Notes: generated by a model not told the origin, from the sequence alone. A stretch of DNA of 64,000 nt from Desulfobacteraceae bacterium (GCA_030593145.1 JAUVHU010000003.1:9962-73961); one strand, 5' to 3'; positions 9,372 to 23,993 are shown, numbered from the stretch's first letter. Numbers and translations: made by a program.

Positions 9372-10952
9372 TTACTTAATTTGCAAAACCTCTCCGGCTC
9401 TCGGAACAATCACCGGAAAGCCTTCATTTGCAAGATGGTCGGCAAATAAAAGAGACTGATCCTCCTCTCCATGAACAACCGCGATCTTTTTTATCCGCAG
9501 GTTTGATTCCCTGACAAAGCGAAGCATTTCATCCTTATCTGCATGAGCGCTGAAACCGCCCAGCCTGACAACATGCGCTTTCAGGGGATAGGTTTTGTTT
9601 AAAAACTTGAGCATAGGCGGATTGTCCTTCCTGCCGGATTTTGCATATTCCCTACCTTTTTCCAGGATGCGCCGACCAAGGGTATTCTGAGCCATATAAC
9701 CGACTATAAGAATAGTGTTTTTCGGGTTATGGATCTTATAACGAAGATGATGCAATATACGTCCTGCCTCACACATTCCTGACGCCGCGATTACAATGTG
9801 CTGTTTTTCCTCCCGCATAAGCTCCATTGATTCATCAACCGAGCTTACAAAATGGATCTCATTAAAGAAAAATGGGTTTTTACCCTGCTCAAGAAATATT
9901 CCATTTGTTTTTTTGTCATATACTTCAGGATGCTCACCATAAACCCTGGTTAACTTTATAGCAAGTGGGCTGTCAACATACACCGGAAGCCGCGGAATAT
10001 CACCCTCATCGTAAAGTTCATGAAGTACATACAAAAGTTCCTGTGTACGGCCAAACGCAAAGGACGGTATTAAAAGCGACCCGCCGCGGTTAACAGTGTC
10101 GATTATTACCTGTTTTAATTGTTGTTTTAAATCCTTTACCGGCCCATGAAAACGATTGCCGTAAGTGCTTTCCATAATCAGCAAATCTATTTCGCGATCT
10201 TCTTCAGGAAAAACAAGGGTCGGGTCCCTGAGAATAGGTGTGCCAAACCTGCCGATATCTCCGGTATAACAAATATTGTATTGGCGGCCATTTTCTTTTG
10301 CCTTGATTAAGGAAAAAGCCGACCCTAAAATATGACCGGCATCATAGAATGTACAAGTCATATCATGCCCAACAGTTGCAGGGTGGCAATAAGGATAACC
10401 ATTAAAACATTTGAGTGATTGCTCTGCATCAAAAACAGTATAAATCGGCCGAACTGCATCCAGGTTCAACTTGTTAATCAACTCGTTAATTTTATCAGTG
10501 TTAAGCTTATTATGATTTGTTTTTAAGATTTTTTTTATTTCTTTTCTTTTGTGATTTGATACATTTTTCATGCCTGTAGAACCATTCATGCCGGACAAAG
10601 ATGAACGCACAATCTTATAATTAAGATAATTTGCGTCCGATTCCTGGATATGAGCAGAATCCTGCAGGAGATATTCACACGCATCGGCTGTCGCGCGCGT
10701 GCATATAATCTGCCCGTTGAACCCGTTCTTCGTCAGCATGGGGATTCGACCGGAATGATCTATATGAGCATGAGAAAGTATAATGTTGGTGATAATCTGC
10801 GGGTCAAAAGGCAAAACCCTGTTCTTTTGCTCGGTTTCTTTTCGTCTGCCCTGAAACATTCCGCAATCCAGCAGTATCCTGTCATTTTCCGTGCTTAAAA
10901 GATGCATGGAGCCGGTGACTTCTCGCACAGCGCCATAAAAGGTTACATTCAC
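9372..10952 (-). CDS. Metallo-beta-lactamase beta-CASP family ribonuclease
   Basis: SHAHIDHSG, AGHILGS, MESTYG, FSAHAD, VHGE motifs. Confidence 0.9.
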   Translation of the reverse strand: MNVTFYGAVREVTGSMHLLSTENDRILLDCGMFQGRRKETEQKNRVLPFDPQIITNIILSHAHIDHSGRIPMLTKNGFNGQIICTRATADACEYLLQDSAHIQESDANYLNYKIVRSSLSGMNGSTGMKNVSNHKRKEIKKILKTNHNKLNTDKINELINKLNLDAVRPIYTVFDAEQSLKCFNGYPYCHPATVGHDMTCTFYDAGHILGSAFSLIKAKENGRQYNICYTGDIGRFGTPILRDPTLVFPEEDREIDLLIMESTYGNRFHGPVKDLKQQLKQVIIDTVNRGGSLLIPSFAFGRTQELLYVLHELYDEGDIPRLPVYVDSPLAIKLTRVYGEHPEVYDKKTNGIFLEQGKNPFFFNEIHFVSSVDESMELMREEKQHIVIAASGMCEAGRILHHLRYKIHNPKNTILIVGYMAQNTLGRRILEKGREYAKSGRKDNPPMLKFLNKTYPLKAHVVRLGGFSAHADKDEMLRFVRESNLRIKKIAVVHGEEDQSLLFADHLANEGFPVIVPRAGEVLQIK

Positions 10953-16418: not shown

Positions 16419-16982
16419 TCAATAGTAAATTCTATCTGTTAATACTTTCCCGTTTTTCGCAAACCTAATCTTTTCAAGTTCAAGCAAAGACCGTTTCATC
16501 TCCGGTCCGCTCATGAATCCACCAGAATGGCCGTCTGACCTGACAACCCGATGGCATGGAATAACTATTGGAAACGAATTATGCGATAACGCTGAACCAA
16601 CCGCCCTCGCGCCGCCGGCAATTCCCAGACTCTCTGCAATCCTTCCATAAGTGCTTATCCACCCGCGGGGAATATCAAAACATGCTGAGAGAACCTTTCT
16701 TTGAAACTCTGAGCACTCTTCAAGGGCAACAGCTTCCAGTTTAAAAATAATCGATTCACCCTCAAGAAATTTATTTATCTGTTCGCCAAGCACTTTAATA
16801 AAAGAACACGATCGAAAACTCACATCAGCGAAATTACTATGGACAAGTTTTTCCAGGGGCTTTCTTTTATCTGATAAAAAAATTCGATAAACTTTTGGCC
16901 CATCTATAGTTTCCTGCCAAACGACAGCAAATAAGCTAAAAGCCGATGGAATCAATATATAATACATTAAGCTACCATACAA
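16419..16982 (-). CDS. ogt: Methylated-DNA-protein-cysteine S-methyltransferase
   Basis: STYGRIA, ARAVGSA, IPCHRV. Confidence 0.9.
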   Translation of the reverse strand: MYGSLMYYILIPSAFSLFAVVWQETIDGPKVYRIFLSDKRKPLEKLVHSNFADVSFRSCSFIKVLGEQINKFLEGESIIFKLEAVALEECSEFQRKVLSACFDIPRGWISTYGRIAESLGIAGGARAVGSALSHNSFPIVIPCHRVVRSDGHSGGFMSGPEMKRSLLELEKIRFAKNGKVLTDRIYY

Positions 16983-17284: not shown

Positions 17285-18223
17285 TCATTGTCTCCGCGAT
17301 CTGGGACGAACCGATTTGAAATATTCGACCTGCTTTTTCCAGTTGAAGCCGCAAGCTGTGTGACAATCGAATGGCCCGAACAGGATGTTGTAGTGATAGG
17401 ATTTACCGCATTTAGGGCAGCTCAGGTTAAAGGTCAGCACGCCTTCCTCTTCGGCCTCCCGATATCCTTCTATTCCGACAAACTGTATGCTGGCGTTCTG
17501 GTCACAGCCATCAGGGCAACGAAACATAATATAGTGGTCCGAAGCCATTGCGATATCTGGGAGCCTGTAATCAGCGCATCCGCTTAGGGTATAGGTCATA
17601 ATGTTTGTCCGTGGTTCTCCGGGTTCCTCTATTTCAACGGTCTTTCGCGTCTCTTTTTTATCGTCCTTATAATAGCGAATCCTTATCAGGCGATCGTATT
17701 TTTGGACCATTTTTGCTGTCCCCTTGCCACCACGGACAATCGTATTGCTGATTTGGGCATTGGCGTAAAATGTGTCCGCATCTCTCACCCAATCTAATTC
17801 CTGTTCCCGGAGATTGACGGCCCTTTCAACTTTTTCGGAAGGCCAGCCCAGCCGAGCGGCAATCATTTTGACATGGTGGATTTCAAGGGGATCGGCTTCT
17901 TCAATAATGATTTTGTTGAGTGACTCCCACAGAGCTTCGGCAAGATCCTCAAGAACTACGGTCTCTGCCTTTTTGTCGATTTCCTTGTGGTTAGATTGAT
18001 AAAAATCGTCCCGATCCACGTATTTTGTATCGACAAGCATCTCTTCAACGATTTCGTCGATTGCCTCTTGTCGTCTTTCCCTGTACTTATCTTCCTCTAT
18101 TTTCAAAGGATACAGTATGTTGGCTACTTCACTTGCCCTCTTTGTGGCGGTTTCCCTGTTGGAGAAGATTGCGCCACCCAATCCCCATGGCTGGTCTGAA
18201 ATATTCACAAAAACAGTTGTCAT
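17285..18223 (-). CDS. Hypothetical protein with Cys-rich C-terminal region
   Basis: 312-aa ORF with GGAGG RBS and promoter; CPDGC, CPKC, CHTAC motifs. Confidence 0.75.
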   Translation of the reverse strand: MTTVFVNISDQPWGLGGAIFSNRETATKRASEVANILYPLKIEEDKYRERRQEAIDEIVEEMLVDTKYVDRDDFYQSNHKEIDKKAETVVLEDLAEALWESLNKIIIEEADPLEIHHVKMIAARLGWPSEKVERAVNLREQELDWVRDADTFYANAQISNTIVRGGKGTAKMVQKYDRLIRIRYYKDDKKETRKTVEIEEPGEPRTNIMTYTLSGCADYRLPDIAMASDHYIMFRCPDGCDQNASIQFVGIEGYREAEEEGVLTFNLSCPKCGKSYHYNILFGPFDCHTACGFNWKKQVEYFKSVRPRSRRQ

Positions 18224-18321: not shown

Positions 18322-18482
18322 TTAATGAAAGTGTCGTGGTGATAAGAAGGGAATGGTCTTCAAAGGTCAAACGAGAAATCGTCAGGAGCAACATAATGAC
18401 ACCCATATGCCTCATCAGCATGGTAAGATGCCAACTAATTTACAAATGGACCGCAAGTCCACCCGCTCAGCAGCTTTTTTAC

Positions 18483-18528
18483 TTGACATCTCAATCTGAT
18501 TAGAATATGTATTTGTACAAGTACATAT
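18483..18528 (+). promoter_or_regulatory. Promoter with a 24-bp palindromic operator upstream of the HTH-MTase module
   Basis: TTGACA 18483-18488; atatgtatttgt|acaagtacatat 18505-18528 (11/12 pairs) over the -10 region. Confidence 0.6.
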
Positions 18529-18574: not shown

Positions 18575-18829
18575 ATGAACGCAGGAGACATCCTTCAACA
18601 AGCTGATGGTCTTACCCATGACAAGCTCACATACTTTGTCAGAGCTGGTTATCTCAATCCAAAAAAAATCAAAAAAGGTTCTCTAAATTATAACAAATTT
18701 TCAGGAAAAGATTTGTTTCTTGTCAAACGTGCTTGGGAATACATCAAAACATACGACATGAAAACAAAAGCCGCCTTTAAACGGGCTGAAAATGAGTTTA
18801 AAGACCCACAGATGGCTCTATGGAGATAA
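18575..18829 (+). CDS. Small MerR-like winged-HTH protein
   Basis: GLTHDKLTYFVRAGYLNP...YNKFSGKDL matches the MerR HTH pattern. Confidence 0.7.
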   Translation: MNAGDILQQADGLTHDKLTYFVRAGYLNPKKIKKGSLNYNKFSGKDLFLVKRAWEYIKTYDMKTKAAFKRAENEFKDPQMALWR

Positions 18830-18925
18830 TGTCTAATATGCAAACCAGCGGCCTGATGGTTTGTTCAACAGAAATAGAAAGATTACACCAGAGAGCAAAG
18901 CCAAATGCTCTAAATAGAGGCTGGC

Positions 18926-21913
18926 ATGAACAACCTTTCTAATAATGACTTCATGGACATCCTGATGAAGTTTGACATGATGCCAGAAACAGGTAAATCG
19001 TCTGGATTGGTTTTTGTTGGAAAAGAGAAGCGAGATAACAGTGAAGTGATAGCTCTGGAATATGCTAAAAAATACGGAGCCGATGCTGTATATTTCAGGC
19101 GGTTTGATGGTGGCCGCCCCCCGATCCCACAGATTTATATATATGATTTTACTGAAAATGAAAAGGATGATGATGAAATAGGTGTTTTATATAAAAGATT
19201 ATGGAATTTTGGCCAGGTCCCGCTTTTTTTTATTTTTTATAAAACTGAAGTTAAGATTTTCAACTGCCTGAAACATCCAAAACTTGATCCATCAACCGGA
19301 GATATATCATATTCAGTCTTTGAAACGATTAACTTAGCCTCAAATATAAAGAAAGAATTGGACAAAACAAAGGACTTTTCAGCAAAGCGATTTGATAATG
19401 GCACATTTTGGACCAACCCCAAATATAAAGACAGATTTAAGTTAAAAGATACAGTATATTTAAAATTATTAAATGAATTAAAGCGGACAAGAACAGATAT
19501 AATCAAAAGCAAAATTCTGAAAGATGAAATCGCTCAAAAGCTCTTTGTTATGTCGATCCTTGTTAAGTATCTTGAGGAACGGGAGGATGAAAACGGTGTT
19601 AAAGTTTTTCCATCAGGGTTCTTTAGCGATTTTTCAGATGGACATGATACTTTTTTGGGCGTTTTGAGGAAAAAGGGGGCGTGCCTTGATCTGTTCGACT
19701 ATTTAGGTAGTAAAGACTGTTTTAACGGCGAGATTTTCAAATGGAAAGATGAAAAAGAGAGAGAAACTTTAAAAAACGCAGACCTTAAACCTTTTGCAGA
19801 TTTTTTCGAAGGAAAACTGGATGGCCGCCAGTATACATTCTGGAGGCTCTATTCTTTTAATGACCTGCCCATAGAATTAATCAGCAATATTTATGAGGAA
19901 TTCCTGGAATCTAAAAAAGGCATCGTTTATACGCCCCCATATTTAGTCAATTTTCTTATTGATGAGCAGATGCCTCTTACCGACTTTCATAAGACTGATT
20001 TCAAGGCTATTGATCCGGCTTGCGGGTCAGGTGTTTTTCTGGTTGCCGCATTTCGGAGAATGATACACTGGTGGAGAATTCGAAATGATTGGAAAAAACC
20101 GGATGCTAACAATCTGAAAGAATTAAAAAAGATTCTCAAAAATAATATCTTTGGCGTTGATATGCATGAAGAAGCTGTGCGCCTGACATTTTTCAGTTTA
20201 AGCCTGGCCTTGCTGGACGAGCTGTCACCTAAAGTGATATGGGAAAATCTAAAATTTGACAACCTGCGGGAAAGCAACCTAATAAGCAAAGATTTTTTTA
20301 AATTAATAAAGGATAATTTTTTCCAATCTGATTTTGACCTTGTGATTGGGAACCCACCTTTTGAGTCTAAATTAACTACTGCTGATGCAAAACAGATTGA
20401 ACAACAAAAAATAAAGGAAAGACCAAAACTGCCTGATAACCAGATTGCTTTGCTGTTCCTTGAGCAGGCCATGAACCTGTGCAAAGAAGGGTCCCATCTC
20501 TGCTTAATCATGCCTTCCGGGCCGTTTCTTTACAACAACAATTCTGTGGAATATAGAAAATACTTTTTAAGCGCTTATCATGTGCCTCAAATAATAGATT
20601 TTACCTTTTTAAGCGCGGTTCTCTTTCAAAGTGCAAATGTTGCTGTAGCAGCCGTTTTTGCAAAAAAACAGAGTCCCACCAAAGAAGATCTGCTTCATGT
20701 AACAGTGAGAAGAACAAAGCCGGCCAAGGAAAAGCTGTATTTTGAATTGGACTACTATGATTTCCATAGGATATCCCACCAGGAGGCATTAGAAAACAGG
20801 CTTGTCTGGAAAGCAAACTTATTAGGGGGCGGAAGGTTAAAGCACCTTATGGCAAGATTTGCGCCCCTGAGAACCTTAGGCGATTATTTAAAGGAAGCTA
20901 AAAATAAACATGGCTGGGCAATTGCAGAAGGATTCATAGTTGGCAATAGAGAAAATATAGATGAGCTAATAAAACTTAAGGCAAGTGCAGGAATATTATC
21001 CCTGAAAGATAGAAAAAGACTAGAAAGGTTGGAAAATAAATATAAAAAAGCAGACTATCTTACAGATAAAAAGACCTTACCTCGGGATGCGCTCACCGAA
21101 GAAGGGATTGTTGAGGCTGAAATTCACCCTTTAAGAGAAGAATATTTTGAACGGAATAGGCAAAGAAATAAGCTAATTTTTAAAGGCCCACATTTGTTAA
21201 TTAAAGAAAAAGTTACGAAAAATTCAATCCCAATAGCATTTAGAAATAATGACCTATCTTTCCAACATGACATTATAGGTATTCACGCCCCTGAAGACCA
21301 AATAGACAAATTATTACAGATTGAAAAGCGAATCAAAAATAATAAAACTTGCCTTTTCTATGTTGCAGGATATAGCGGATGTTACATGATCGGGCGGGCT
21401 ACATCTATTTTAAAAGAAGATTTCGGAAGCCTGCCCTTTCCTGAAGATGAAACGGAGCTTGAACTTACTGAAATTGAACAGATTTTAGTGGATGATGTTT
21501 TGGATTATATGCTCGATTTCCGGAAAAAAGGTGAAACGTCTGTTGCTGAAAAACCTGTTAATGATCATCAGTTGCATCGATTCTCGGAAACATATTGCAG
21601 GGTTTTAAATTCAGTATATAAAGAGTTCAAACCATACAAGCCGCTAAAAACCGGCTCATTTATCTGTTTCCCGTTTTACTACAAGGATAAACCTCAAATT
21701 AAAACAGAAAATCCGGATGAACTTGAAGCAGCTTTATATGAGCTAATCCAAAACAATACCAGCACGAATTCAAGAATTGTTAGAATGTTGAGGGTTTATG
21801 AAAACAACACTATTTATCTGATAAAACCCAAACAGACACGCTACTGGCTACGATCTGTTGCTATTCGTGATGCAGACGATACTTTTACTGATCTGGTTGT
21901 TCAAGGATATTAA
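18926..21913 (+). CDS. N6-adenine DNA methyltransferase, gamma class, Type IIG/Eco57I-like architecture
   Basis: GIVYTP (motif X), DPACGSG (motif I), IGNPPF (motif IV), long C-terminal TRD-like region. Confidence 0.9.
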   Translation: MNNLSNNDFMDILMKFDMMPETGKSSGLVFVGKEKRDNSEVIALEYAKKYGADAVYFRRFDGGRPPIPQIYIYDFTENEKDDDEIGVLYKRLWNFGQVPLFFIFYKTEVKIFNCLKHPKLDPSTGDISYSVFETINLASNIKKELDKTKDFSAKRFDNGTFWTNPKYKDRFKLKDTVYLKLLNELKRTRTDIIKSKILKDEIAQKLFVMSILVKYLEEREDENGVKVFPSGFFSDFSDGHDTFLGVLRKKGACLDLFDYLGSKDCFNGEIFKWKDEKERETLKNADLKPFADFFEGKLDGRQYTFWRLYSFNDLPIELISNIYEEFLESKKGIVYTPPYLVNFLIDEQMPLTDFHKTDFKAIDPACGSGVFLVAAFRRMIHWWRIRNDWKKPDANNLKELKKILKNNIFGVDMHEEAVRLTFFSLSLALLDELSPKVIWENLKFDNLRESNLISKDFFKLIKDNFFQSDFDLVIGNPPFESKLTTADAKQIEQQKIKERPKLPDNQIALLFLEQAMNLCKEGSHLCLIMPSGPFLYNNNSVEYRKYFLSAYHVPQIIDFTFLSAVLFQSANVAVAAVFAKKQSPTKEDLLHVTVRRTKPAKEKLYFELDYYDFHRISHQEALENRLVWKANLLGGGRLKHLMARFAPLRTLGDYLKEAKNKHGWAIAEGFIVGNRENIDELIKLKASAGILSLKDRKRLERLENKYKKADYLTDKKTLPRDALTEEGIVEAEIHPLREEYFERNRQRNKLIFKGPHLLIKEKVTKNSIPIAFRNNDLSFQHDIIGIHAPEDQIDKLLQIEKRIKNNKTCLFYVAGYSGCYMIGRATSILKEDFGSLPFPEDETELELTEIEQILVDDVLDYMLDFRKKGETSVAEKPVNDHQLHRFSETYCRVLNSVYKEFKPYKPLKTGSFICFPFYYKDKPQIKTENPDELEAALYELIQNNTSTNSRIVRMLRVYENNTIYLIKPKQTRYWLRSVAIRDADDTFTDLVVQGY

Positions 21914-21916
21914 TTA

Positions 21917-22633
21917 ATGCTTGCCGATACTCATAAATCCATGGCATCAGGAAAAATAGAAGGACCGGAAATAGACGCCCATATAATTGCTGTCGTGGAT
22001 TTTGTTGAGCGGATTTTGATCACATTTTCAGATAAATATGCCGACTCGGATATAAAAAATGAAAAAGGATTAACCCAGAAACTCGTATTAATCTTAAATT
22101 CTCATGCATTACGTGAGTACTATTCATTCTGGTTTGACAAGGAATATATGGAAATCCCCGAACGCGGCGACAGTCCACAGGTTGATATCGGAACAATAAC
22201 CACCCTTGAAAAAGGCATTGTAATCGACGCAAAAACATATACGGATGAATCCTTTTTTTCTATGGAGGCAAAAAGATTAGGCAATTTAGGAAAAAAAAGG
22301 TCAAAAGAATATCTGATCGGCCGATATGAAAACGAGAAATATATCCATTGCGGTGGTGTTGAACGGTTTAAACAGGAGAAACACGGTAGAAATTTAGAGT
22401 ATGGGGCTATTATCGGTTATGTTCAGGAACATGACTTTACTTACTGGTACGACCGCATTAATTTATGGATTGATGGTTTGATCCAAAAGAACTTATATTC
22501 TCCAGTGCCCTGGCTATTAAAAGACAAGCTGAAAAAAGATTATATCAGATCAACCACCGCAAAGTTTATTTCAACAACCTCCCGAAAAAATGATTTTATT
22601 ACGCTGTTTCATCTGTGGACAAGATTAAATTAA
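21917..22633 (+). CDS. Putative PD-(D/E)xK nuclease
   Basis: PQVDIG...SMEAKRL motif; starts 3 nt after the MTase stop. Confidence 0.6.
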   Translation: MLADTHKSMASGKIEGPEIDAHIIAVVDFVERILITFSDKYADSDIKNEKGLTQKLVLILNSHALREYYSFWFDKEYMEIPERGDSPQVDIGTITTLEKGIVIDAKTYTDESFFSMEAKRLGNLGKKRSKEYLIGRYENEKYIHCGGVERFKQEKHGRNLEYGAIIGYVQEHDFTYWYDRINLWIDGLIQKNLYSPVPWLLKDKLKKDYIRSTTAKFISTTSRKNDFITLFHLWTRLN

Positions 22634-22862: not shown

Positions 22863-23993
22863 TCAACGCTGGGAAAGATATCCGCCTTGAACACCTTCTG
22901 GAGAAAAAACTATCTGCCACACCTGATTTACCCTTGCACGGAAACAACCTGCGCAGGATAAGAGATAAAATTTCCACATTCTGTAAAAACGCTCATCATA
23001 TTTTTCTTTCAGAACATCCCAATTATTATGGAAATTTTCAAACCATTGCATCAGGGTTTTATCGTAGTAAACACCAAAACTATGCCAGTCTTCAAGAACA
23101 AACAATCCATTGAAAGCATCGCATAGCTGTTTTGCAGACGGCAGCATTGAGTTAGGAAAAATGTAACGATTAATCCATGGATCAGTGTTTGTATCTGAAG
23201 AATTCCTGCCTATTGTATGCAGCAGGAAGAGTCCATTCTTCTTAAGGCACTTTTTAACTACACGCATAAATTCAGCGTAATTTTTGTAACCAACATGTTC
23301 GATCATACCGATTGAAAGTATCCGGTCAAAGACTTCATTGAGGCTGCGATAGTCCTGGAAGCGAATTTCTATTGGCAGCCCCTGGCAGATCTCCTTCCCC
23401 AACCGTGCCTGCTCTTCTGAAACAGTAATACCTATTACTTCAACATTATAGTGTTCAACAGCAAATTTAGCGGTCCCACCCCAGCCGCAACCGATATCAA
23501 GGACCCGCATACCAGATTTTAAGCCCAGCTTACGACAAATCAGATCCAGCTTGGCTTCCTGAGCTTCGTCAAGATTTGAAGCATTTTTCCAGTAAGCGCA
23601 ACTATAAATCATGCGCTTGTCCAGCATGCAACGGTACAAATCATTACCCATATCATAGTGGTAACGTCCTATCTTGAAAGCACGGGATGGCTTTTGCAAG
23701 TTGACTATTTTAGCCTTCACGACTTCGAATAAATATGAGAGCGGTTTAATCTTTGTATCCAGCCCGGCCCTAAAAACCTTATCAAATAATTGGTCAAGAC
23801 TGTCACAATCCCACCAGCCGTCCATATAGGATTCGCCGACACCCATCGAACCCTCGGCTAAAAATCTTGCACACATCTTATCATCATGAACCTGGATATT
23901 CCAGGGACGGTCGCCATTAATTTTAACATCGGCAAGAAACAATAGCTCTTCAACTTTTTGGTGTAACTTATCCTGACTCATTGCCACCTCCAT
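22863..23993 (-). CDS. cfa: Cyclopropane fatty acyl phospholipid synthase
   Basis: GESYMDGWW, HYDMGNDLY, YSCAYW, LDIGCGWG, IGMIEHVG, YIFP. Confidence 0.95.
   Translation of the reverse strand: MEVAMSQDKLHQKVEELLFLADVKINGDRPWNIQVHDDKMCARFLAEGSMGVGESYMDGWWDCDSLDQLFDKVFRAGLDTKIKPLSYLFEVVKAKIVNLQKPSRAFKIGRYHYDMGNDLYRCMLDKRMIYSCAYWKNASNLDEAQEAKLDLICRKLGLKSGMRVLDIGCGWGGTAKFAVEHYNVEVIGITVSEEQARLGKEICQGLPIEIRFQDYRSLNEVFDRILSIGMIEHVGYKNYAEFMRVVKKCLKKNGLFLLHTIGRNSSDTNTDPWINRYIFPNSMLPSAKQLCDAFNGLFVLEDWHSFGVYYDKTLMQWFENFHNNWDVLKEKYDERFYRMWKFYLLSCAGCFRARVNQVWQIVFSPEGVQGGYLSQR

Follow-up and report, generated by a model that had tools for sequence, protein, structure and literature searches.

Can a methyltransferase (MTase) of Type IIG descent leave DNA cleavage to a nuclease encoded by the next gene? 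The question is raised by positions 18,575 to 22,633 of a 64,000-nt stretch of DNA from a Desulfobacteraceae bacterium (GCA_030593145.1, JAUVHU010000003.1:9962-73961). This whole stretch is called the window, and all positions are counted from its first letter. Three open reading frames (ORFs) lie here on the same strand:

18575-18829, + strand: ORF of 84 aa, a clade-specific small protein without a known family, putative DNA-binding regulator
18926-21913, + strand: ORF of 995 aa, the large protein
21917-22633, + strand: ORF of 238 aa, the small protein, a predicted PD-(D/E)xK endonuclease (AlphaFold2 model and VIA matches)

The module is a real, conserved and mobile two-gene restriction-modification (R-M) unit, which has three genes in the window's clade. 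Our best explanation, with a probability of about 0.5, is that it is an R-M module of the "Type IIG-like" kind with its endonuclease in trans. The 995-aa protein would have descended from a single-chain Type IIG enzyme and would retain a helical connector, an intact gamma-class N6-adenine MTase and a C-terminal recognition region. Because it keeps both the MTase and the recognition region, it would find the target sequence and methylate host DNA. Its N-terminal nuclease-fold domain would persist as a folded domain that has lost the canonical catalytic residues. DNA cleavage would be supplied by the 238-aa protein from the next gene, which would need the large subunit to be targeted or activated.

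The large protein probably has the domain order of Type IIG enzymes

The following parts of the large protein were distinguished:

18926-19420, + strand: aa 1-165, restriction-endonuclease-like fold, probably catalytically degenerate (AlphaFold2 model, VIA matches)
19448-19885, + strand: aa 175-320, helical connector as in HsdM, PglX and MmeI (VIA matches)
19877-20785, + strand: aa 318-620, gamma-class N6-adenine MTase domain (Pfam, PADLOC)
20012-20032, + strand: motif I, D363-P-A-C-G-S-G369, conserved
20351-20362, + strand: N476-P-P-F479 (NPPF), conserved
20786-21913, + strand: aa 621-995, probable target-recognition region and conserved C-terminal tail (ESM Atlas leads)
21776-21910, + strand: aa 951-995, the C-terminal tail (mean pairwise identity)

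Conservation of both proteins was scored in 56 non-identical full-length relatives, and a position is called conserved here if it is kept in at least 95% of them. Pfam matches to the large protein were confined to aa 318-603, where Eco57I (6.6e-24), N6_Mtase (6e-19) and MmeI_Mtase (29.8 bits, cutoff 27) were found. Motif I precedes NPPF, which is the gamma-class order. The best PADLOC model was REase_MTase_IIG (PDLC03603, 1.9e-42), covering aa 87-634, and a profile of the full-length protein matched only MTase domains among solved structures. The original prediction for this locus had named a 995-aa gamma-class N6-adenine MTase, and the Eco57I match and the motif order bear this out.

No Pfam family was matched by aa 621-995, even at E<=1, and the same was true of five C-terminal regions from the family. 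A language-model search of the ESM Atlas gave leads only, to clusters of M_Eco57I_C, TaqI_C, Methylase_S and BpuSI_TRD. In mean pairwise identity, aa 701-950 stand at 0.40 and aa 951-995 at 0.67, above every other region. This part of the protein is probably the target-recognition region.

The AlphaFold2 model of aa 1-320 (mean predicted local distance difference test score, pLDDT, 81.6) consists of two parts, residues 1-165 and 175-320. With VIA, the first part matched the putative restriction endonuclease (REase) domain of 9y1l (Z 7.0), the HsdR N-terminal domains 3h1t (Z 6.1) and 2w00 (Z 5.7), DrdV (Z 5.9) and BpuSI, 3s1s (Z 5.5; model residues 2-162 against chain residues 19-170). The second part matched 3khk (Z 7.6), the PglX structure 8c45 (Z 6.8), 2ar0 (Z 6.6) and MmeI, 5hr4 (Z 5.5; model 178-313 against chain 162-290). 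Since all these Z values are below 8, they count only jointly with the consistent domain order, which is the Type IIG layout. The best Foldseek match of the N-terminal domain was BpuSI, at E 0.038; there was no match at E<=0.001 in the PDB or a viral library. A profile of the domain found nothing at E<=10 among solved structures, and a Pfam scan of 26 such domains gave scattered chance matches only.

The N-terminal site is probably inactive

Before residue 118, which is the extent of the alpha/beta core, only L28, R58, Q69 and P99 are conserved. Q69 is invariant (56/56) and R58 is kept in 55/56, while Y71 is tyrosine in 48/56 and D53 is aspartate in 32/56. The original prediction had seen no D...(D/E)xK motif in this region. 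As a literal statement this fails, since a D74...E108-V-K110 string is present in the window's protein. The string is poorly conserved: D74 is aspartate in 41/56, position 108 is E in 27, D in 18, Q in 9 and S in 2, and position 110 is K in 32, R in 12, and I, L and N in 4 each. No acidic/lysine triad is conserved in the domain across the relatives.

In the AlphaFold2 model, D53 lies just ahead of strand 54-58, and Q69-I-Y71 lies within the next strand, 67-74. These are the strand positions at which the PD-(D/E)xK fold normally places its D and its (D/E)xK. The passages on catalysis in the BpuSI report (PMC3185434) give E21, D60, E76 and K78 as catalytic residues confirmed by mutagenesis, with the motif written as PD-x15-ExK. 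The spacing of 16 between D53 and Q69 equals that between D60 and E76 of BpuSI in those passages, and the offset of about 7 between the proteins fits the point where the VIA alignment stops, at 162 in the model and 170 in BpuSI. From strand placement, spacing and offset taken together, we read the canonical site as D53-x15-Q69-x-Y71. If the correspondence with BpuSI is right, the site would be D-x15-QxY and catalytically dead, and Q69 is presumably invariant for a reason other than catalysis.

The small protein is a predicted PD-(D/E)xK nuclease

The candidate catalytic residues of the small protein are conserved:

22184-22186, + strand: D90
22265-22273, + strand: E117-A-K119

The AlphaFold2 model of this protein is a good one by its scores (pLDDT 86; predicted template modelling score 0.84). 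Its best VIA matches were the restriction enzymes BglII (Z 7.2, 131 residues aligned), OkrAI (7.0), BamHI (6.9) and BstYI (6.7). Further matches were CinB, McrC, Bse634I, NucC, Card1, Can2 and the DrdV nuclease domain, as well as CdiA-CT; most of the VIA matches listed are PD-(D/E)xK or related nucleases. The conserved positions include E49, D90, E117, K119, E131, Y132, G146, E149, R150, K152 and H156, and positions in the GGVERFK..HG segment are among them. The original prediction had pointed to D...EAK and to this segment, and the conservation of D90...E117-A-K119 agrees with it. Residues 1-17 have a pLDDT below 50, yet G12 is conserved. By its modelled fold and its active-site conservation the small protein is a nuclease, which would be expected to cleave DNA.

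The small protein had no match in Pfam, PADLOC, NCBIfam or PHROGs and none in phages. Against PDB sequences it gave chance-level matches only, its profile gave one chance-level match, and its model had no Foldseek match at E<=0.001 in the PDB or the viral library. A word-indexed search returned 173 matches, called "hypothetical protein" wherever they were named. In a full scan, 732 clusters at 50% identity matched with E<=0.001, 570 of them with E<=1e-10.

The two genes are found together

A metagenome scan was seeded with the N-terminal 320 aa of the large protein and was hence blind to the small gene; 80 loci were kept. In 65 of them the small gene is the next one downstream, on the same strand. 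Another 12 loci have less than 400 nt of contig beyond the large gene, and in the remaining three (L018, L031 and L080) the large gene itself is truncated or broken. The small gene is thus present in 65 of the 68 loci with downstream DNA, and pairing is near-obligate. In 44 of the 65 pairs the reading frame of the small gene is open before the large gene ends; in 20 it begins 4-7 nt past the last sense codon of the large gene and in one 126 nt past it, so that the genes overlap or abut in 64. In the window the spacer is 3 nt, exactly as originally described. The small gene is probably translationally coupled to the large gene.

The same gene order was seen in two genome loci (L001 and L002), and in two distant genomes of the same phylum with 4-nt overlaps. 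Twenty plasmid matches, 24-32% identical to the small protein, were found; the pair was in order in all three alphaproteobacterial plasmid loci that were examined. The family is patchy: of 400 other genomes of the phylum, three gave a match, in one case a weak 36-aa fragment, and two genomes of the same family gave none.

The three plasmid copies (L089 on pTi_CFBP2407, L090 and L091) are alphaproteobacterial, and one is on an Agrobacterium Ti plasmid. An 8-kb metagenome contig (L027, 1-8077) carries two copies of the module in tandem, in the order large-gene end and nuclease, second 84-aa gene, second large gene.

Comparison with known systems

The closest likeness is with the split systems of Blow et al. 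2016, whose passages on "Type IIG-like" systems describe an MmeI-like MTase and recognition domain without a PD-ExK motif and an endonuclease on a separate peptide, with AchA6III, OspHL35III and MexAMORF1192P as examples (PMC4752239). Here, too, an MmeI-type MTase (the MmeI_Mtase match lies above its cutoff) with a probable recognition region has a degenerate N-terminal domain without a working motif, and an adjacent endonuclease gene follows it in nearly every locus; as in the systems described there, a single recognition module presumably guides both activities. The partners named in those passages are a PLD-nuclease/translocase fusion, a translocase with a GIY-YIG nuclease, and translocases with an HNH nuclease (PMC4752239). 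In contrast, the partner here is a lone 238-aa PD-(D/E)xK protein, and the large protein keeps a folded pseudo-nuclease domain. No translocase or helicase was found in the window at 14-27 kb and none was conserved next to the pair in the 20 loci scanned; a RecD-like protein was seen in two of the 20.

In Type IIG and IIL enzymes such as BpuSI, MmeI and DrdV the order is nuclease fold, helical connector, gamma-class MTase with NPPF and C-terminal recognition region, and the large protein follows it with a predicted nuclease fold at one end and a probable recognition region at the other. They differ in that the large protein has D...QxY at the canonical D...ExK position and no conserved triad, and is followed by a separate nuclease gene. 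It is not a strict Type IIG enzyme, because the catalytic motif is not conserved. Pfam also holds the models MmeI_N, MmeI_hel, MmeI_TRD and MmeI_C, and none of these was matched by the large protein.

Heterodimeric Type IIS and IIT enzymes (BspD6I/BstNBI, BtsI and BsrDI) likewise have a large subunit for recognition and a small catalytic one that shows no activity by itself, according to the sections on these enzymes in PMC4081073 and PMC2909958. Their large subunits, however, nick DNA and have no MTase domain, methylation being left to separately encoded MTases; no sequence or family relation to them was found. The Type IIP enzymes BamHI, BglII, BstYI and OkrAI are the best folds for the small protein, which has a PD-(D/E)xK core with conserved catalytic residues and a similar size. 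Identity to this group is only 8-12%, the Z scores lie below 8 and within 1 of those for unrelated nuclease classes, and the MTases of the group are small and stand-alone.

Three other assignments were rejected. MADS (MAD2) scored 60.3 bits in NCBIfam against a cutoff of 720 and had no partner genes in the window, and BREX (PglX) scored 41-53 bits against cutoffs of 400-900, with no PglZ or BrxC in the window. Type I membership was rejected on scores and absent partner genes. No description of this exact pair was found in the literature, in a search outside of which lay REBASE and the supplements of Blow et al. 2016 (S3 Table and S4 Figure), which may list the family.

Does the nuclease depend on the large subunit?

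Two decayed loci bear on this question. In L001 (5096-8000) the large gene has deletions of 37 nt and 70 nt inside the MTase domain, and that of L013 (296-3283) is interrupted by a nonsense codon at aa 179. Each of these loci retains a full-length nuclease with all its conserved residues. A disrupted MTase beside an intact nuclease would be hard to tolerate if the nuclease cut DNA alone. Together with the near-obligate pairing, the lack of a conserved N-terminal triad and the triad kept in the small protein, this favours a split system in which the large protein recognises and methylates and the small one cuts. The retention of the pseudo-nuclease and connector domains, the conserved tails of the two proteins and the tight coupling of their genes point the same way. 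The original prediction had proposed such a division of labour. The pairing and the distribution of catalytic residues support it in part, and the reliance of the nuclease on its partner would be its more conjectural part.

Several observations weigh against this reading. The case from broken MTases consists of two loci, both from metagenome assemblies, and decay in the reverse direction also occurs: in L032/L033, which are one distinct locus (9937-10503), the nuclease is cut short at 189 aa beside an intact large gene. That nuclease ORF covers profile positions 2-184, and the contig runs on beyond the stop. All structural matches were below Z 8, a range that the aligner rates as middling, and the residue correspondence with BpuSI was drawn from spacing and alignment ranges rather than from a residue-level superposition. 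The window's large protein does carry E45, D74 and E108-V-K110, so that a non-canonical active site is possible in this clade. Divergence rates do not separate the models, as both the small protein and the recognition region stand at 0.40, with Spearman coefficients of 0.49-0.67 for all regions. The remaining points speak for a nuclease that works on its own. Its nearest folds belong to orthodox homodimeric Type IIP enzymes, and 238 aa is large enough for DNA recognition alone. Type II systems whose REase acts independently are typically marked by a small regulator gene upstream, and candidates for such a gene here encode the 84-aa protein, putative XRE-type helix-turn-helix (HTH) proteins in L039 and L053, and ribbon-helix-helix (RHH)-like proteins on plasmids. 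A fused form of the two proteins was found neither among the best 150 of the 732 cluster representatives, all of which are 94-281 aa long, nor in a weaker search for longer proteins.

These last points are what an ordinary Type II pair would lead one to expect. The 238-aa protein would then be a homodimeric Type IIP enzyme like BamHI or BglII with its own recognition, and the 995-aa protein would be a companion MTase of Type IIG descent. The four best folds (131-142 residues aligned), a size typical for Type IIP, the controller-like small DNA-binding genes upstream in several clades and the lack of a fused form among the homologues searched all fit, and many Type II REases are accompanied by gamma-class MTases, as stated in a section of Pingoud et al. 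2014 (PMC4081073). We regard this as possible, on the doubtful side. The disrupted MTases of L001 and L013 should be lethal beside an independent REase, which argues weakly against it, and a companion MTase has no obvious need for the pseudo-nuclease domain and connector that are kept in at least 56 diverged relatives, with their invariant Q69 and near-invariant R58. The gene order is also invariant, with overlap or abutment in almost every pair, and the Type IIP matches score less than 1 Z unit above unrelated nuclease classes. An independent Type II pair would still be a new REase family with an unusual MTase.

It is improbable that both subunits cut, as in a two-site heterodimer like BspD6I, BtsI or BsrDI. 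In such an arrangement the N-terminal domain would be active through E45, D74 and E108-x-K110 and would nick one strand, and the small protein would cut the other. These residues are present in the window's protein and its close relatives, and Type IIS enzymes that pair a large subunit for recognition with a small one for catalysis are documented in PMC4081073 and PMC2909958. Position 110, however, is not lysine in 24/56 relatives and position 108 is Q or S in 11/56, and all of these keep the small partner. Moreover, E108-x-K110 lies in a strand that comes after helix 82-95 and strand 100-104, not in the canonical hairpin strand that follows the D-bearing strand. We give slightly less credence still to a role other than usual restriction, in which the MTase protein would restrain the nuclease as an effector of abortive infection or addiction, or in which both would serve in epigenetic control or repair. 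The effector nucleases NucC, Card1, Can2 and CdiA-CT are among the fold matches, the pair is mobile, and the window's copy sits among housekeeping genes. Against this, the neighbourhoods examined hold no conserved signalling enzyme or sensor, an MTase with a recognition region beside a nuclease is the defining R-M layout, and the defence-island context is equally consistent with R-M.

Returning to a Type IIG-like module with its nuclease in trans, the two subunits would be expected to form a complex. The large subunit might dock through its pseudo-nuclease domain and its conserved C-terminal tail, and the nuclease through its disordered N-terminal tail with its conserved position. We tentatively suggest, as possible but on the doubtful side, that the dead nuclease domain is retained as a docking or dimerisation partner of the small active nuclease. 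The two might form a head like that of a FokI dimer, with one live and one dead site, or the dead domain might dock a dimer of the small subunit. One recognition domain would then programme both methylation and cleavage, and the nuclease would be exchangeable and separately regulated. If so, this would be a distinct, widespread and unnamed R-M architecture, as the small protein alone accounts for at least 570 clusters at 50% identity. A nuclease acting in trans under a single recognition domain would be a minimal two-protein form of single-recognition-domain R-M, and a naturally occurring case of a pseudo-nuclease domain retained for something other than catalysis.

One further large gene, in L049 (299-1375), has an in-frame stop near aa 156. 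The stops in L013 and L049 both lie near the boundary between the N-terminal domain and the helical connector.

The 84-aa gene and its upstream region

Two features lie just upstream of the 84-aa gene:

18478-18506, + strand: promoter-like site, TTTACT-17-TAGAAT (consensus scan, 9/12 matches)
18505-18528, no strand: 24-nt palindrome, candidate operator overlapping the -10 region (inverted repeat I2; 12-nt arms, 92% complementary, no spacer)

The consensus scan found fewer promoter sites than in shuffled sequences, and the promoter-like site is therefore weak taken alone. In 12 related loci there is almost no change in this stretch, which also contains a TTGACA shortly after the first hexamer. 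The palindrome is retained with 0-5 substitutions in all 12 of the related loci examined, and in several of these its core, GTACTTGTACAAGTAC, is perfectly palindromic. This conservation suggests a candidate autoregulated operator. The 12 loci, in which the whole of 18478-18528 is almost unchanged, lie in other genomic contexts.

The original prediction had labelled the 84-aa gene HTH and counted it as a component of the system; the label found no support from any tool, and the gene is no conserved component. The protein matched no family in Pfam (even at E<=1), NCBIfam or PHROGs, and no HTH family; PADLOC gave one weak match only (0.0065). The sequence has a MerR-like look. In 15 loci with differing outer flanks, copies 80-98% identical to it immediately precede the large gene. 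Since these loci share no outer flanks with the window, the three genes move as a unit. The gene is confined to the clade in which the large protein is at least 71% identical, and the ORFs that precede the large gene in L002, L007, L008 and the plasmid loci are not homologous to it. In other clades the upstream position holds unrelated small genes or none. Judged by this distribution of sequences, the 84-aa gene is not a defining part of the module, and a variable, non-orthologous controller is usual in R-M systems. In the window's clade the 84-aa protein, encoded behind the conserved promoter and palindrome, probably controls expression of the operon as a putative regulator.

Elsewhere, L039 (1837-2049) and L053 (1766-1975) have an ORF of 69-70 aa upstream of the large gene, with the look of an XRE-type HTH protein as judged by eye. 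Each of the plasmid loci L089, L090 and L091 has a 61-64-aa RHH-like protein in front of the large gene.

Defence context, annotation and surroundings

Neighbouring genes were scanned with PADLOC in 20 of 27 selected long loci, covering 117 of 143 neighbour ORFs. Strong matches were found within about 6 kb in 10 of the 20 loci, and an eleventh, L023, had a reverse transcriptase only. The ten are as follows:

L022: Type I MTase
L033: PDC-S23
L038: dGTPase
L043: Type IIG and REase_II
L050: Type III R-M and Nsn
L063: type I-C Cas
L073: PDC-S01
L074: PDC-M05A
L081: PDC-S01 and Type IV REase
L082: Type III R-M

Among these, PDC-S01, PDC-S23 and PDC-M05A are candidate systems. On the plasmids, the module adjoins SIR2, AbiH or toxin-antitoxin genes, with transposases near. 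The window's copy is the exception, lying among housekeeping genes.

The original prediction had spoken of an uncharacterised defence system. The pair is indeed unannotated in the libraries searched and undescribed in the literature found; it is an R-M variant rather than a new kind of defence system, and split "Type IIG-like" systems are already in print in the passages of Blow et al. 2016 cited above (PMC4752239). The PADLOC search that had been proposed as a check placed the large protein with REase_MTase_IIG and left the small one unmatched. There is an annotation gap: the small nuclease, with its 732 clusters, is called just "hypothetical protein" wherever a source names it, and its large partner goes under "N-6 DNA methylase" or "HsdM family" and nothing more specific. 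As the small family is unannotated and the large one generically named, defence pipelines will take these loci for orphan MTases or for Type IIG enzymes standing alone. R-M systems will be miscounted in consequence, including copies on Agrobacterium Ti and rhizobial plasmids.

Around the module in the window lie the following genes:

16419-16982, on one side of the module: ogt-like gene (Pfam, PF01035)
17285-18223, - strand: ORF of 312 aa without a known family, between the ogt-like gene and the module
22863-23993, on the other side of the module: cfa (Pfam, CMAS)

The module is AT-rich, as had been predicted, with a GC content of 0.34-0.39 against 0.40-0.47 in the flanks. It had also been placed between ogt and cfa; both genes were found, but the 312-aa ORF intervenes on the ogt side. 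In agreement with the prediction, no HsdR, HsdS, BREX, DISARM or helicase genes were found near the module in an ORF list covering 14-27 kb and in family scans of the window. The wider neighbours are housekeeping genes, encoding TP_methylase, UPF0102, PP2C, a metallo-beta-lactamase-fold protein and iPGM. In an attempted comparison of island boundaries, synteny was not kept with two genomes of the same family, whose contigs are short. The 20 runs listed are all DNA, from sediment or cold-seep metagenomes, with no RNA among them.

The 312-aa ORF had no family in Pfam, PADLOC or PHROGs and sub-threshold matches only in NCBIfam. It is absent from every related locus and therefore lies outside the module. 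Paired Cys motifs are found close to its C-terminus.

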